Source: Verrucomicrobiota bacterium
Lineage (GTDB): Bacteria; Verrucomicrobiota; Verrucomicrobiia; Limisphaerales; AAA164-E04
DNA length: 64,000 nucleotides
Assembly: GCA_047947115.1 (NCBI GenBank)
Contig: CP170459.1
Location: forward strand, 1,696,001-1,760,000
Reading direction: 5' to 3'
Made by a program: the position numbers and the translations under genes. Numbering within the stretch: position 1 is the first letter of the stretch; every line of letters starts with the position of its first letter. Positions 16,480-22,328 of the stretch are shown here, in pieces. The notes beneath the pieces are model-generated. The model had not been told where the DNA came from and searched no databases. It saw only the letters and a program-made list of their open reading frames with translations.

Positions 16480-17084
16480 GTTCACCGAAATAGATGACAC
16501 TGGAAGTAATCGAAAAACGTGCGACTGAAAAGCGGTATGAGTTACCGCATTTGTCCGTGCATGGATGGTGATGGGGGTGAGGTTGTGATTGTTTGCAAAG
16601 TGGCAGGAGAAACCTTTGGTGACTTGCTGCCAGCATCTCGGTAGAGGCCTTCGACGACGTTGAAAATATAACCGCCCTGCCAGTTCCAGTAGCGCCCCGA
16701 GACATTTGGGTGGTTTGCGGGATGAATCCATGGATTCGATTTGTTCCTTTCCTCGCTCAAGCCGACTTTGAAATGAATCGAAGTGTATGCTCCGTCGGGA
16801 ATGTTGGGCAGCATGAGAGAGATTTCTCTTTTTCCGACATCAAACCAAGCCACTGAATCCGGAAAGGATTGAAGATGCCTTTCACTTGTCTGGAGACTGA
16901 AATCGCTGAGAAACAGGCTCAATCGTGAAATGGAATAGATCTGCCCTGCGTCGTTGGAGTATCGCAACGAATCCAGCGCCAAGGCGCGGTCCTCGTACAC
17001 TGTGTGAAGCGTCAATTTCAGCTGTCCCGCGCTTGCGCTCCAGCAGACCAATACTGCCACGATGATGAAGCTGTATTTGTTCAT
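16480..17084 (-). pseudogene. MbnP-family copper-binding protein, degenerate
   Basis: Signal peptide MNKYSFIIVAVLVCWSASA, 'YSISRLSLFLSDFSL', 'YTSIHFKVGL', 'YWNWQGGYIF'. The continuation 'KGFSCHFANNHNL' is in another frame and then truncated. Confidence 0.7.
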
Positions 17085-17190
17085 ATCGAACGTAATATTG
17101 GAAGGATGCTTGTCGAATGCAATCAGCAAGGGGTGAACCGGAACCGGGGAGGGGTGAATGAGAGCATCGATGGGGTGAATTAAAATATGG

Positions 17191-17225: not shown

Positions 17226-17549
17226 ATGAAAGTTAAGACAGCCGATCTCAAAGCCAATTTGTCGAGCTATGTGCGTAAGGTTCGAGAAACAGGTGAACCA
17301 GTTGAAATCCTTCTGAGAGAAGAAGCAGTGGCTTACCTGACACCGGTTTGCGGAGAAAAAAAGCAGACTGTTCAGGAAATCCAGGATATGAAGGCATTGG
17401 AACGTGATTTAGCCGAGAATGGCCTCACCTGCCAAATGGCGCGTGCCGGTTCCAAACCTTCCGATTTTACGCCAGCTCCGGCAGTTGCGGGTGATGGTCA
17501 GGTAGATGTGATTACCGTCGAATCAATCCGCAGTGAAAAGGATTGGTAA
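17226..17549 (+). CDS. Phd/YefM-family antitoxin
   Basis: 'MKVKTADLKANLSSYVRKVRETGEPVEI...AVAYLTP'. Confidence 0.85.
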   Translation: MKVKTADLKANLSSYVRKVRETGEPVEILLREEAVAYLTPVCGEKKQTVQEIQDMKALERDLAENGLTCQMARAGSKPSDFTPAPAVAGDGQVDVITVESIRSEKDW

Positions 17550-17575
17550 TCGACGAGAATTTCTAGGGAGTTATT

Positions 17576-17974
17576 GTGGAACTTTTTTTTGATACATCCG
17601 CCATTGTACCGATCCTTCTCAAGGAACCTCATACAGAAAAAGCGATCAGCGCCTGGACTAAAGCGAAAAGAGTTTGGGCCTGGCGATGGCTGCAGGTTGA
17701 GGCAGAAGCGGCTTTGAGCCGACGGAAAGCACCTGCGCTTGCCTGGCAAAAATGGCATCAAATGAGTGCCGTTTTCGGATGGTTGGATATCGACGATAGG
17801 CAATACTCGCAATTAAGAGTCTTTAATCGGACCTTACGATTACGGGCAGCTGATGCCGGGCATCTCTACACATTTCACCTGGCAGTTCCCATTCTACCCG
17901 ATCTCAAGCTTGTCTGCTTTAATGAAGAAATCAATCGTGCAGCCGAAGTGCTCGGTTTGGATCGTTTTTCATAA
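17576..17974 (+). CDS. vapC: PIN-domain (VapC-like) toxin
   Basis: 'FFDTSAIVPILLKEP', 'VEAEAAL', 'LRAADAGHL'. Confidence 0.85.
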   Translation: MELFFDTSAIVPILLKEPHTEKAISAWTKAKRVWAWRWLQVEAEAALSRRKAPALAWQKWHQMSAVFGWLDIDDRQYSQLRVFNRTLRLRAADAGHLYTFHLAVPILPDLKLVCFNEEINRAAEVLGLDRFS

Positions 17975-18647
17975 GGCTGAGACAATTTACCTCAGAAGTC
18001 TGTTAGTTGCCCCACGACCCCGTTTTCACTGATTTTCGGCCAACTTTGCTCTAAAAAACCGGACCGGATACCTTGCCGAAGCGGACGCATCCAAACGGAT
18101 ATGCATCGAAGTCACACCACTTCGGAATTGCCGATACGTCGACCAAGGTCCTGCAGAAGTGGGGGCTGATTCCAATACAATTCCTCTTGGAACAAGGGAC
18201 CAATGGAATTCAAGAAAATCACCCGAGCGTTTTACTGGAGCATGATTTTCCCTGGTCCTTTTGGATTGACCCCAAAACTCACTAATTTACGAGGCAATCG
18301 GGGCTTGTTCTGCGGCTATAGTCAGTCACAAGGGTCTGGAAATCCGAGTTGGGCAATCAGCAATGGAAACCCTCATAGACTGAATCGGCGGCGATGGATG
18401 TACAAACGATTTTCTGGACCTGCGAATGCAGGAAGGGCTCAGGATAAGTTGGTTGAAGATCGAACAATCCCAGAGTCTAAAACCAGATGTGTGACTGGAT
18501 CAGACAAGCAATACGAAAATCAAGAAAGCGGCGAGCCTTGATAATCTGGGGGACATCCGGACAAATATAAACAAAGTAAAAAAAGTCGAAAAAAACGACT
18601 TGGGGTTGATATTTGTCTCTTGACCGAAAACTCTAATGTGTGACCTC

Positions 18648-19363
18648 AAAACTCTTGTTTTTGAAACAATTGAAAGAGAGGTTGGGGATTGGAACCGTTT
18701 CACAAATCGTCGTCAAATTGGCAGTTATACGGGGCTCTGTGGCGGTCTCAGTGCCAGTGGGCGCAGCAGTTGTCAGCTATCGATTACAAAGCACGGCAAC
18801 GTGCGATTACGAACTGCACTGGTCGAGATGGCCTGGCGATTATTGTTATGGCAAAAGGAATCTAAGCTAGTGAAGAAATGGCAATCGGTATTGGCAAATC
18901 CTCGAGCCAGCGGTGCCGCACGTAAAAAGGCCATTGTCGCCATGGCTCGACAACTGGCTGTGGACTTATGGAGATGGCAAACCGGACGAATAAGCCCAGA
19001 GGACTTGGGATGGGTAATGAAGGGGGGTTGAAGTCTCAGTCTCCCCTCATAGAACAACACTTTTAACCAGGATAAAGATGGACTGGAAAGATTTGAAACG
19101 GCACGTGCCCGGAACCCAGGCGGGGTCAGAAATGGTCCGATTATGAGATGGGGTACGTTCGTTTCTTGGCTGTGACCGTATGAGTCACGAGGTGCCGAAA
19201 TTAGTAATAAATCGTGCACGGATAGCAGGATGAGCAACGGCTAAGACCGTCGCCAGAGCCAGGAAAACGTTTTAGATTTTCCATATCCTTCGAGAAAGGA
19301 ACAAAAAGAAGAACCTGAAAAAAACAGAAAATGCACTTGGGTGCTTGACACTACTCATAGCAG
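18648..19363 (+). mobile_element. IS110-family element, 5'-truncated: C-terminal transposase domain (to 19031) plus ~330-nt non-coding right end
   Basis: 'EVGDWNRFTNRRQIGSYTGLC..LSASG...SITKHGNVRLRTALVEMAW...KAIVAMARQLA'. The end carries TTGACA (19345) and CATAGCAG. Confidence 0.85.
19040..19270 (+). ncRNA. Candidate IS110 bridge/seek RNA
   Basis: Long structured non-coding region after the transposase stop. Stems ttcttggct/agccaggaa, gtgac/gtcac and acgg/ccgt. Internal ATAGCAG is identical to the element end. Boundaries approximate. Confidence 0.55.
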
Positions 19364-19434
19364 CCTGAAGGGCTGGCTGTGTATGAAGGCAATTGCAACT
19401 TGCTCAGCGGCACACGTTCGTCCATCATCCGCTC

Positions 19435-19554
19435 ATGCTCAGAACCACCATTGCCCATTACAAAATCACCGGCAAGCTCGGGCAAGGCGGCATGGGAGAA
19501 GTGTGTCGGCCGACGAACGGCAAAATGGACCACTTGGCGGCGATCAAAGTAGTG
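19435..19554 (+). pseudogene. Ser/Thr protein kinase N-terminal fragment
   Basis: MLRTTIAHYKITGKLGQGGMGEVCR...AAIKV covers subdomains I-II only; homology then disappears. Confidence 0.75.
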
Positions 19555-19718: not shown

Positions 19719-20372
19719 TTGATGATGCCAAAACGAAAATTGACAATAATGGTGTCTTCGACGGTTTATGGTATCGAAGAGTTGCTTGAACGTGTTTATG
19801 CGCTACTTACATCTTTCGGATACGAGGTTTGGATGTCGCATAAAGGCACAGTCCCGGTAATTTCGCCCATGACCGCTTTTGAGAACTGCCTCCGTGCAGT
19901 GGAAAAATGTGATCTGTTTCTTGGAATTATCACTCCTTCTTACGGGAGCGGTGAAGATCCACGTGATTCAACGGGTATGTCTATCACTCATCATGAAATC
20001 CGGAAGGCTATTGAGCTGGATAAGCCTCGCTGGCTATTGGCTCATGATCACGTTGTATTTGCCCGTACTTTACTCAAAAATCTTGGGTTTGGAGGTAAAA
20101 GCGGAAGAAAAAAACTGAAACTCAACAAGAATCAAGTTTTTACTGATCTGCGCATTTTGGATCTGTATGAAGATGCCACGATTGATCATGAAGAGCCTGC
20201 GTCCATTCCTTTGGCAGATCGGCGAGGCAATTGGGTCCAGAAATATCATTCCGATAACGATGGAGCCGTTTTTGTCATTGCGCAGTTTTTTCGTTACCAG
20301 GAAGTGGAGGAATTTATTCGAGAGCATTTCCAGAACGGCAACCCTCCTACATTAAACGGGGGTAGCAAATGA
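19719..20372 (+). CDS. DUF4062 domain protein (TIR/nucleoside-deoxyribosyltransferase-like)
   Basis: 'IMVSST', 'CLRAVEKCDLFLGII...YGS', 'SITHHEIRKAIELDKP'. Confidence 0.85.
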   Translation: MMMPKRKLTIMVSSTVYGIEELLERVYALLTSFGYEVWMSHKGTVPVISPMTAFENCLRAVEKCDLFLGIITPSYGSGEDPRDSTGMSITHHEIRKAIELDKPRWLLAHDHVVFARTLLKNLGFGGKSGRKKLKLNKNQVFTDLRILDLYEDATIDHEEPASIPLADRRGNWVQKYHSDNDGAVFVIAQFFRYQEVEEFIREHFQNGNPPTLNGGSK

Positions 20373-21811
20373 CTCAAAAACAAATCAGGGAACTGTTATT
20401 TCTCGGCGAAGGCCAACGTATAGAGTTCAAATCTTCCCCTCGAAACCCGGACGCGCTTGGCAAGACGGTGTGCGGTTTTTTGAACAGCTCCGGTGGCTTT
20501 TTGGTTTGCGGAGTCAGTGACAAGGGTGATTTGAAAGGCGTCGATACCTCTTCTGACGCCATCGGCCGACTTGAACATATTCTCAACGAGAAAATATCTC
20601 CGAAATCTTTGATCGCTGTCCAAGTGGAGCAAGTGGGGAAGTTTCCGGTAATCGTCATCGAAGTGCCGGCGGGAAATGATGTTCCTTATGCTTTTAAGGA
20701 TGTCATTTACATACGGTCCGGTGACCGGACCCAAAAAGCGGATGCGGAGACTATTCGCGATATAGTCCTGCGCCGCCAGATAGAGCCGGAACGGTGGGAA
20801 CGTCGTTTCTCCTTTGCCGATCTAGATGATGATGTAGATGAGGTTGAGGTGCTCGCAGCGGTATCCGACGCCGAAAAGGTGCGGCGGGCTTTTTTCCGTG
20901 ATGGAACCCAGTTATTGATGGTTCTCGAGGATTTTTCGGTCGCCCGTTACGGCCGTTTGACCAATGGTGGTGATGTTCTTTTTGCCAAGAATTCGGCGAT
21001 CCGTCTTCCGCAAATTCGCATCCGCGCCATGTGCTACAGTTCGGATAAAACAAGCGCTGAATTCAGAGATATGAAATCGTTTGAGGGTCCAGTCTGTCGC
21101 ATTTTTGAGGAAGCCTATTCCTTCATTGTTCGTAATACGCCTACGATTTCGCGATTCATCCCGGGCAGTCCCAAACGCCAAGATGCCTCTATATACCCGG
21201 AGGAAGCGGTCAGAGAAGCTCTGGTTAACGCGCTAGCACACCGTGATTACAGCGTCGCATCTGGTGGAATTGGCATCCACATATATCCTCGTCGGCTTGA
21301 GATTTGGAACTCTGGCGCCTTGCCTGCGGGTGTTACGGTGCCCAGCCTGCAGGCTGGGCAGATCTCCGTTCTGCGAAATCCTGATATTGCCCATGTGCTT
21401 TATTTGCGGGGACTCATGGAGAAGGCCGGTCGTGGCAGCGTGCTCATGGTTCGTAAATGCTTGGAAAACAAGATGCCTCCCCCGGTATGGAAATCAGATT
21501 CTCAGCTGGGAGTAACTGTAACATTCTTTACCCCGGAAGTCACCCCGGAAGTCACCCCGGAAGTCACCCCGGAAGTCACCCCGGAAGTTTTTAGGTTATT
21601 GCGGTGCATTCAGGGGGAAATGACTCGGCAGGCGTTGCAAGCGGAGATGAATCTCAAGGATGCAGAGCATTTCCGAAAGTCATTTCTATTGCCAGCGTTA
21701 GAATCGGGAGTTGTAGAAATGACAATCCCCCAAAAACCAAGAAGCAGCAAACAACGTTATCGACTTACTGCTAACGGCAAGCTGCTGACAAAGCGGCCAA
21801 AAGAAGAATGA
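20369..21811 (+). CDS. AlbA_2 (Schlafen-like) + HATPase_c_4 + C-terminal winged-helix protein
   Basis: 'GEGQRIEFKSS', 'CGFLNSSGG.LVCGV.D', 'YPEEAVREALVNALAHRDY', 'RNPDIA', 'EKAGRG', tail 'IPQKPRSSKQRYRLT'. Confidence 0.88.
   Translation: MTQKQIRELLFLGEGQRIEFKSSPRNPDALGKTVCGFLNSSGGFLVCGVSDKGDLKGVDTSSDAIGRLEHILNEKISPKSLIAVQVEQVGKFPVIVIEVPAGNDVPYAFKDVIYIRSGDRTQKADAETIRDIVLRRQIEPERWERRFSFADLDDDVDEVEVLAAVSDAEKVRRAFFRDGTQLLMVLEDFSVARYGRLTNGGDVLFAKNSAIRLPQIRIRAMCYSSDKTSAEFRDMKSFEGPVCRIFEEAYSFIVRNTPTISRFIPGSPKRQDASIYPEEAVREALVNALAHRDYSVASGGIGIHIYPRRLEIWNSGALPAGVTVPSLQAGQISVLRNPDIAHVLYLRGLMEKAGRGSVLMVRKCLENKMPPPVWKSDSQLGVTVTFFTPEVTPEVTPEVTPEVTPEVFRLLRCIQGEMTRQALQAEMNLKDAEHFRKSFLLPALESGVVEMTIPQKPRSSKQRYRLTANGKLLTKRPKEE
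21530..21589 (+). repeat. Coding 12-bp tandem repeat x5 (TPEV linker)
   Basis: accccggaagtc x4 plus accccggaagtt. Confidence 0.95.
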
Positions 21812-22116
21812 GAGCGCCATTCAATGGCCGCAGTTTGACGGTGAGTCTCCTGTTGCTAGTGGCAGGGGTGGGTGTCTGGATTCCATGGATAAAATATGGA
21901 TACTCACCTACTATGATTCACTTTGTTGGCATGCTGACCACTGGCTGCATCTATTTTGCTTTTTGGACTGTTGGTTTAGTAAGTCTGATTCGTGATTCTG
22001 ATCGTGGATATGTGGGCTGGAAGTTGCAGATTGCAAGCGTTGTTTACCTGTTAGCATTCATCGTTCCGGCTGGCATGATCATCATCATAGTGAGGGCAAT
22101 GTTGATGGGCATTTGA
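21808..22116 (+). CDS. Small membrane protein (about 3 TM helices)
   Basis: Three hydrophobic stretches. ATGA overlap with the upstream gene. Confidence 0.65.
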   Translation: MRAPFNGRSLTVSLLLLVAGVGVWIPWIKYGYSPTMIHFVGMLTTGCIYFAFWTVGLVSLIRDSDRGYVGWKLQIASVVYLLAFIVPAGMIIIIVRAMLMGI

Positions 22117-22280
22117 CCGTATTTGAGGTTCAAAAATTTGGCATTTATTTGGTTTCCTTGCCTGGAACTTCACTGGATTGCCCGGTATTGCAGATTCCAG
22201 AAGCATGGCTAATCCGTCACCTTAAACGCATCTAACAACCTGGTAAAAAGTGGGATAAATAGGCGAAAAACGGGAGGATT

Positions 22281-22328
22281 TGGTGGAGCCATGGTGAGTC
22301 GAACCCCAGACCTTCTCATTACGAATGG
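22281..22328 (-). other. Degenerate tRNA 3' half (att-site-like remnant)
   Basis: Minus strand CCATTCGTAATGAGAAGGTCTGGGGTTCGACTCACCATGGCTCCACCA has an anticodon arm, a GGTTCGA T-loop and a ...CCACCA end, but no 5' half. Confidence 0.75.

Follow-up and report, generated by a model that had tools for sequence, protein, structure and literature searches.

A 64,000-nucleotide stretch of the genome of a Verrucomicrobiota bacterium (contig CP170459.1, positions 1,696,001 to 1,760,000; hereafter the window) contains three overlapping genes, A, B and C. We found that A and B form a fixed two-gene module that recurs across bacteria and archaea, and that C is a bystander outside this module, its overlap with B being a one-off. 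Gene A encodes a stand-alone DUF4062/NIR protein, a predicted NAD-cleaving enzyme, and gene B encodes a Schlatpase, which joins a Schlafen domain to a GHKL-type ATPase and a winged helix-turn-helix (wHTH). On balance, we somewhat favour the reading that the pair is an abortive-infection anti-phage system, in which A would be the NADase effector and B an ATP-driven sensor and switch. The observations behind this reading are the obligate pairing and co-evolution of the two genes, an invariant NIR glutamate and ATPase motif, a relaxed Schlafen motif and a defence setting.

Pairing of genes A and B across genomes

The original prediction had described three open reading frames (ORFs) joined by consecutive ATGA overlaps. 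All three frames and both overlaps, at 20369-72 (A–B) and 21808-11 (B–C), were confirmed, and the junctions are not assembly artefacts, because contigs from other public DNA runs bridge both of them (two contigs for A–B and one for B–C). Gene A starts with TTG, with in-frame ATGs at 19722 and 19725, and each of the three genes is single-copy in the host genome. A matched Pfam DUF4062 (PF13271) with an E value of 4e-17 and 62.6 bits against a gathering cut-off of 24.7; B matched SLFN_AlbA_2 (PF04326, 1.1e-21), HATPase_c_4 (PF13749, 1.3e-14) and a Fic-like_C wHTH (5e-23); and C matched no Pfam family. As the original prediction had expected for PADLOC, neither PADLOC nor NCBIfam has a name for the A–B pair: PADLOC 2.0.0 (2023) has no family for A or C and gave only partial pAgo/Aga matches for B, the pAgo match covering profile positions 59-396 of 1121, and no NCBIfam 20.0 family was matched by A, B or C.

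A search with A returned 1853 homologues at E ≤ 0.001. We analysed two sets of loci, one selected on A (the best 80 of 228 GTDB loci) and one selected on B (the best 80 metagenome loci, at 35-75% identity). The A-selected loci span 14 named phyla and comprise 69 bacteria and 11 archaea, methanogenic archaea included. B lies directly after A at 79 of these 80 loci, the 80th stopping at a contig edge, and both plasmid loci carry the pair. Conversely, A lies directly upstream of B at 68 of the 80 B-selected loci; the other 12 comprise seven with less than 150 bp of sequence ahead of B, three fragmentary B genes, one frameshifted and distantly related Schlatpase and a single intact B without A (L098). 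A coupled, defence-linked pair is conserved elsewhere, as the original prediction had anticipated. The A–B overlap is -4 in 109 of the 138 pairs with an assignable start and is therefore beyond chance. Trees of A and B from 126 near-complete pairs shared 45 of 123 splits, compared with a mean of 0.14 and a maximum of 2 after shuffling. Gene A had no match in viral contigs and GenBank phages, and its mobile relatives were found on plasmids only.

The membrane protein encoded by C had also been proposed as a third component and possible effector. The B–C overlap is real and C is hydrophobic, but C is absent from all 160 loci of the two sets, and no small gene with multiple transmembrane segments follows B in any of the 125 evaluable pairs, so that conservation extends to the pair and not to the triplet. 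A single homologue of C, 37% identical, occurs in G007, one of 21 other genomes of the family, behind a gene that we take to be ruvB-like; because this homologue exists, C is probably a real gene. An Atlas search with C gave nothing at 0.9 or above, only leads below 0.9. We regard a three-gene system with a membrane effector as very improbable.

Conserved residues and predicted roles of the two proteins

E93 and W172 are the only invariant residues in an 81-sequence alignment of diverse A homologues, and E93 is present in 145 of 145 ungapped rows. It is the glutamate of the 'SIT..E' motif already noted in the window copy, and is predicted to be catalytic. An AlphaFold2 model of A built from the 81-row alignment has a predicted local distance difference test score (pLDDT) of 91.4; it replaced a first model from 35 close homologues, with a pLDDT of 62.5. 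The model is a single TIR/nucleoside deoxyribosyltransferase-like domain (flavodoxin fold) that carries a helical insert. Fold matches cover residues 4-200, which appears to leave no room for a separate sensor domain. These matches were to MilB (Z 11.5, root-mean-square deviation (rmsd) 3.6, 140 residues aligned), TIRAP (Z 10.9, rmsd 3.0, 135 aligned), a deoxyribosyltransferase (Z 10.4), the SARM1 TIR (Z 10.1) and plant and STING TIRs (about 10), and they include DNPH1/Rcl. Because they mix N-glycosidases with TIRs, we only infer the substrate of A. A profile of the A family matched the structure of the Swarozyc protein KpSwz (E 6e-5), and E93 aligns with the alanine of the KpSwz E97A chain, assuming an offset in numbering. 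The earlier guess that a DUF4062 protein would cleave NAD agrees with three 2026 preprints on this domain.

The same fold matches bear on a Thoeris-like arrangement, in which A would make a nucleotide signal, or cut a modified nucleoside monophosphate as MilB and DNPH1 do, and the product would activate B. MilB, nucleoside deoxyribosyltransferases and DNPH1/Rcl are indeed among the best matches, and the association with operons that form N4-methylcytosine (m4C), described below, would fit a modified-nucleotide substrate. By contrast, the DUF4062 proteins described in the preprint texts lowered NAD+ and acted as effectors, and the nuclease motif of B is often lost, which would leave B without an obvious effector. 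We consider this arrangement distinctly unlikely.

Several further observations concern A. W172 was considered as a partner-binding residue and set aside, an essential tryptophan being reported also in the single-gene system Eva01 (positions not aligned). The A–B complex prediction gave an ipSAE of 0.00 in both runs and was used neither for nor against binding. A search for longer, fused forms of A returned three matches, which is weak as evidence of absence; P0122 resembles an in-frame deletion hybrid, and an apparent N-terminal fusion at L076 is probably an over-long ORF call. On an Acinetobacter plasmid (L002:1984-4351), A is preceded by an additional, degenerate NIR-like gene, and the B of this locus has lost the first Schlafen glutamate. 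The database proteins P0166 and P0183 each join a degenerate NIR domain to an intact one in tandem, which hints at pseudo-NIR/NIR heteromers.

The product of B consists of a Schlafen/AlbA_2 domain (residues 14-124, with E14, E19 and K21), a GHKL-type ATPase (E283, N287 and GRG at 354-356), a TPEV linker and a C-terminal wHTH, and its profile matches were to SLFN12/5/11/14 and Fic wHTH structures. The linker varies in length, with 0-12 TPEV-type units ahead of the wHTH among relatives of B. E283 and N287 are invariant in all 144 ungapped rows. Judged by motif spacing, they would correspond to E314 and N318 of RzAgo, through which, according to the preprint text, the GHKL domain hydrolyses ATP and drives tetramerisation (bioRxiv 10.64898/2026.05.29.728809). 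Identity between pairs of sequences averages 0.71 for the NIR core, compared with 0.58 for the GHKL region and 0.45 for the Schlafen domain.

The 'E..EFK' motif reported in the window copy is present as E14-x4-E19-F-K21, an intact version of the Ex4(E/D)xK motif that is described as required for tRNA cleavage by Schlafens (main text of PMC13056530). Across paired B proteins this motif is intact in 85 of 147 and degenerate in 62 of 147 (intact in 31 of 58 after clustering at 70% identity), and it changed state at least 19 times on a tree of 138 rows from which the columns of the motif had been excluded. The Schlafen box of paired B reads C(G/A)FLN instead of SAFAN. Because the motif is degenerate in 62 partners, the Schlafen domain is probably not an obligatory effector; of the Schlafen-like nuclease or sensor role first proposed for B, the motif stands in this copy, whereas an obligatory nuclease probably does not.

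The controls were 40 Schlatpase-like loci drawn from 200 genomes in the phylum of the host. Two proved to be further A–B pairs, and the other 38 comprised 24 Schlafen-GHKL genes, 12 single-gene DUF4062-GHKL fusions and two genes without a called N-terminal domain. The Schlafen motif was intact in 23 of the 24 unpaired Schlafen-GHKL proteins, compared with 31 of the 58 clustered pairs (Fisher p 1e-4, which is overstated as kin are not independent). In a GHKL tree, the paired B proteins form one group (Shimodaira–Hasegawa approximate likelihood-ratio test (SH-aLRT) support 87) and the fused NIR-GHKL genes form a separate one (support 100). At least two attachments of the NIR domain to the ATPase-wHTH chassis therefore occurred, one in cis and one in trans. 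Branching next to the pairs is P0221 (640 aa), a natural full fusion of an A-like NIR with Schlafen-GHKL-HTH, the Schlafen motif of which appears to lack its lysine. The NIR-GHKL(-wHTH) fusions are L210, L214, L219, L220, L222, L223, L225, L226, L235, L236, L239 and L240, and a further one lies at L015:4881-6404. No description of this architecture was found in the paper texts searched, and the single-gene fusions are a candidate system of their own.

These data also bear on the possibility that both proteins are effectors, or that B leads: B would be an autonomous sensor and tRNase, and A a back-up NADase or an accessory. Ex4ExK is kept in the window copy and in more than half of the partners, L098 has an intact B without A, damage is commoner in A than in B (see below), and Schlafen tRNase defence has been shown for RzAgo and RorSlfn5, all of which would fit a leading role for B. 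Yet the motif changes state repeatedly on the tree while the glutamate of A never does, and unpaired Schlatpases keep the motif almost without exception. We therefore consider a B-led or dual-effector system unlikely.

Genomic setting and proposed mechanism

Type I restriction-modification (R-M) genes were present at 36 of the 80 GTDB loci, and at 27 of the 50 that are at least 10 kb long. Of 79 pairs, 32 are immediately adjacent to an hsd gene and 25 lie inside the operon, where they occupy the M-S (14), M1-M2 (9) or S-R (2) slot. An NPPY methyltransferase is encoded at 24 of 33 hsdM-bearing loci and is accompanied by NPPF at 20; this combination is the signature of two-methyltransferase type I systems that form N6-methyladenine (m6A) and m4C; such systems make up about 2.5% of the type I systems in REBASE, according to the text of PMC5100572. 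R-M genes also accompany 9 of the 38 controls (3 of the 24 pure Schlafen genes and 6 of the 12 NIR fusions), all with a single NPPF methyltransferase and thus with the NPPF and NPPY combination in none of nine operons. After redundancy removal, R-M genes remained at 15 of 30 pair loci, seven with NPPY, and the identities of B and M2 co-vary (rho 0.76), so part of the m6A/m4C bias reflects shared descent. In one gammaproteobacterial clade the order M1(NPPF)-A-B-M2(NPPY)-S-R is fixed (L047, L052, L055, L061, L063, L065, L071, L072 and L074), and eight of these nine loci have lost the Schlafen lysine.

PrrC is a toxic effector carried as cargo between the hsd genes of type I R-M operons. A–B might similarly be a guard that needs its cognate type I R-M complex and fires on inhibition of that complex, which would be a special case of the sensor-and-effector reading. 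The frequent contact with hsd genes, the insertion into operons and the excess of NPPY and of NPPF with NPPY over both REBASE and the controls would fit such a guard. However, 44 of the 80 loci have no hsd gene, unpaired Schlatpase-like genes also occur in R-M operons, the co-variation of B with M2 fits hitch-hiking, and the counts shrink on redundancy removal. The window copy itself lies outside any type I R-M operon, and R-M dependence as an obligatory feature was rejected, the nearest hsdM genes in the host genome being about 3 Mb from the pair. A PrrC-like guard is, in our judgement, quite unlikely.

Defence genes were found in the fetched flanks of at least 46 of the 80 loci, and of 36 of the 50 that are at least 10 kb long (hand tally); this is a lower bound, with 279 of 413 cluster representatives or members compared with Pfam and 92 proteins with PADLOC. 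Beyond R-M, the neighbours include BREX, Gabija, SIR2-HerA, retron III-A, DRT UG9, PrrC, AbiE/AbiL, GmrSD and CRISPR genes. The pair lies inside or beside BREX at L073 (after pglX), SIR2-HerA at L049, retron III-A at L015, DRT UG9 at L020 and PrrC at L070.

In a survey of damage among 149 pairs, A was frameshifted or truncated next to an intact B at 11 loci in 9 lineages, the core of B was broken next to an intact A at one locus (L064), and both genes were broken at one. Three further B genes with an intact A (L004, L025 and L076) have a missing or interrupted wHTH. The A of L002 had been flagged as damaged and is merely divergent. Although selection bias and assembly errors weaken this asymmetry, the lopsided damage mildly favours A as the toxic part, restrained by B.

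The damage would also suit a module that is not primarily anti-phage, namely a toxin–antitoxin-like or stress-dormancy unit that spreads as a hitch-hiker on mobile R-M operons and in which a toxic A is kept in check by B. A is never without B in 79 evaluable loci, the two genes appear translationally coupled, the window copy sits in a decaying mobile patch, and TrlG, an AlbA_2-HATPase_c_4 protein, restricts growth of Photorhabdus at 36 C, as described in the text of PMC7554251. By contrast, NIR genes are enriched near defence systems and those tested in the preprint texts mostly protect, and the neighbours of the pair include BREX, Gabija, SIR2-HerA, a retron, DRT, PrrC and GmrSD. Addiction and anti-phage roles are, moreover, not exclusive. 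A role limited to addiction or dormancy seems to us fairly improbable.

In the abortive-infection reading that we favour, the mechanism would draw on two properties of characterised relatives described in the preprint texts: a NIR domain hydrolyses NAD+ only once a sensor has reorganised it, and ATP makes the PF13749 GHKL domain oligomerise. As A has no sensor domain of its own, we infer that B supplies the sensor in trans. In uninfected cells, B would hold A inactive. A phage or stress cue at the wHTH or (pseudo-)Schlafen domain would change the oligomeric state of B, and this change would license NAD+ depletion by A, leading to abortive infection. Where Ex4ExK is intact, as in the window copy, tRNA cleavage may be a second, dispensable output, and type I R-M operons would be a favoured landing site and no requirement. 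In support, the same ATPase-wHTH chassis carries a NIR domain directly in 12 of the 38 controls, and P0221 fuses all of A to B. An extension of this reading, which we find possible but doubtful, is that the Schlafen-GHKL protein was repurposed from a tRNase effector into an ATP-switched guard of a separate NIR NADase. The Schlafen domain would then repeatedly decay to a pseudo-nuclease that serves as sensor or docking site, the chassis would alternate between a Schlafen domain, a fused NIR and a NIR in trans, and in its NIR versions would back up type I R-M, especially m6A/m4C systems.

Several points weigh against the abortive-infection reading. The Schlafen motif is intact in 58% of partners, the window copy included, and its glutamates are mostly conserved (E14 in 134 and E19 in 139 of 150 rows). 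Nucleotide N-glycosidases stand beside TIRs among the top fold matches of A. Five of 31 strong A splits conflict with strong B splits, and the A-selected set covers only the best 80 of 228 loci. The damage asymmetry is confounded, as each set was selected on one gene, and the GTDB set alone gives 1 versus 1. The rate of defence neighbours is close to the baseline of 69.6% given for the pSlfn family in the text of PMC13056530, so the pair is not singled out. That text reports two constructs of the pSlfn-HisKinase group, neither of them among its two protective genes; one of its eight constructs failed synthesis, the group being unstated.

The window copy lies in a decaying insertion (Table 1), and its surroundings (a toxin–antitoxin pair, an IS110 remnant, a kinase fragment and a tRNA half) were borne out by Pfam and genome comparisons as first described. 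In the same-genus genome G006, the genes flanking this patch are about 400 bp apart, compared with 6.5 kb in the window; 16.3-22.5 kb is therefore an insertion relative to G006. In G007, also of this genus, a full 939-aa kinase gene, to the start of which the stub is related, adjoins a complete tRNA-Ala, and the window keeps only the stub before A; this kinase is absent from all 80 GTDB loci. The tRNA-Ala copy, which resembles both the tRNA-Ala locus of the genome and a second partial copy, is likely an integration scar.

Table 1. Positions of the genes and surrounding features in the window
Feature	Position	Strand	Basis
Gene A, stand-alone DUF4062/NIR protein, 217 aa	19719..20372	+	Pfam, alignment, AlphaFold2
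Gene B, Schlatpase, 480 aa	20369..21811	+	Pfam, structure-profile matches, conservation
Gene C, hydrophobic protein, 102 aa; overlaps B, not part of the module	21808..22116	+	
Five 12-bp tandem units coding (TPEV)5, between ATPase and wHTH	21530..21589	+	
Phd/YefM antitoxin and PIN toxin pair	17226..17974	+	Pfam; context only
IS110-family transposase remnant	18636..19031	+	Pfam PF02371; context only
Ser/Thr kinase 5' stub, 54 codons, left of cassette	19393..19554	+	72% identity to same-genus kinase
Diverged tRNA-Ala(CGC) 3' half and about 150 bp of downstream flank	22132..22327	-	88% identity to both the genome's tRNA-Ala locus and the second partial copy

The second orphan tRNA-Ala(CGC) 3'-half copy lies at G000 C1:4190415-4190615. 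Both orphan copies carry about 150 bp of conserved downstream sequence, the final 40 bp of which are nearly invariant, and shorter matches occur elsewhere in G000 and G007; the copies are possibly scars of a genus-specific integrative element. A truncated MbnP-family gene at 16542-17129 (minus strand; 195 aa versus 605 aa in the same-genus genome G001) is a further sign of decay in the patch. Between 12757 and 16266 lie a 474-aa ORF, a 207-aa ORF and a 438-aa membrane ORF, conserved in the genus, which we take to resemble an O-GlcNAcase-like hydrolase, a GNAT protein and a lone PTS IIC permease. A promoter and terminator scan found sites no more frequently than in shuffles. RNA runs gave short, low-depth contigs over parts of B only; one RNA-library contig joins 19503 to 22131 and skips the cassette, a weak hint with 29 bases on one side.

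Relation to known systems

The comparisons below refer to the paper texts searched, with figures and most supplements outside the search. No description of the A–B pair was found in these texts; Osinski Fig. S1G (DUF4062 operons) and Le Mouellic Fig. 2 (architectures) may show it, and the accompanying texts do not. Three 2026 preprints show NAD+ depletion by the DUF4062/NIR domains of Swarozyc, Avs2, Vulcan, Vesta and Evangelion, mostly with a fused sensor region. Swarozyc, Evangelion and Vulcan have the NIR domain fused to an AUX or HEAT sensor in one gene, whereas A does not. KpSwz of Swarozyc (bioRxiv 10.64898/2026.05.01.722283) resembles A in its DUF4062 core and in the glutamate E97 that would correspond to E93, but it is one 326-aa chain whose winged-helix AUX domain senses the portal; in A–B a separate protein carries the winged helix, which follows an ATPase. 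Evangelion Eva01-04 (bioRxiv 10.64898/2026.06.25.731849) share with A the DUF4062 core, an essential glutamate and tryptophan, NAD+ loss and mobility, but are single-gene systems with an AUX region. Eva02 and A. baumannii homologues are non-protective in that preprint, and its text has no mention of Schlafen, AlbA or HATPase. Vesta (VstA, a NIR protein, with VstB, an alkaline phosphatase; bioRxiv 10.64898/2026.09.04.749371) is also an operon of two tightly linked genes, the first of which encodes a small NIR protein that has a catalytic glutamate. The partner in A–B is instead an SLFN_AlbA_2, HATPase_c_4 and wHTH protein; moreover, VstA can do without VstB and possesses a C-terminal domain of its own, whereas A seems to have no sensor domain.

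On the side of B, the SLFN-pAgo protein RzAgo is likewise a Schlatpase (PF04326 and PF13749) with an ExxxN ATPase motif, and exchange with type I R-M is reported for Schlatpases. RzAgo carries a MID-PIWI/Argonaute sensor, whereas B, at 480 aa, has none and has an obligate NIR partner; the Schlafen motif of paired B is often degenerate and its box differs. The text on SLFN-pAgo, which counts about 60,692 Schlatpases, most of them of the stand-alone, uncharacterised form with a short HTH to which B belongs, has no mention of DUF4062. The pSlfn HisKinase(-HTH) classes (PMC13056530) resemble B in architecture, Ex4(E/D)xK motif and location in defence islands, but no protection is reported for this architecture, and DUF4062 is absent from the main text and 11 of 26 supplement files. 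TrlG of Photorhabdus laumondii, growth-restricting as described above, shares AlbA_2 and HATPase_c_4 with B, but shares its operon with a phosphatase-like gene and a small regulator rather than with DUF4062 (text of PMC7554251). PrrC consists of unrelated domains, and the R-M linkage of A–B is optional and absent in the host genome.

There are tens of thousands of stand-alone Schlafen-GHKL-HTH proteins, which are wrongly annotated as RecG and for which no mechanism has been demonstrated, and DUF4062/NIR was recognised as a defence NADase only in 2026. An obligate pair in 14 phyla offers a compact two-gene test of GHKL-wHTH sensing and effector control, with natural variants (motif-intact, motif-less, fully fused and NIR-GHKL fused) as ready controls. 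If the defence role is true, the pair would be a further widespread system, one not called by PADLOC 2.0.0 and NCBIfam; if the repurposed-guard extension is true, the large family of stand-alone Schlatpases would gain its first mechanism. The families of both genes were described in 2026, and the pair is distinct from Swarozyc, Evangelion, Vulcan, Vesta and SLFN-pAgo. What is new here, set against these systems, is the invariance of E93 and of E283/N287 next to the loss of the Schlafen motif, with controls, together with the fusions, the bias towards m6A/m4C systems and the removal of gene C from the module.

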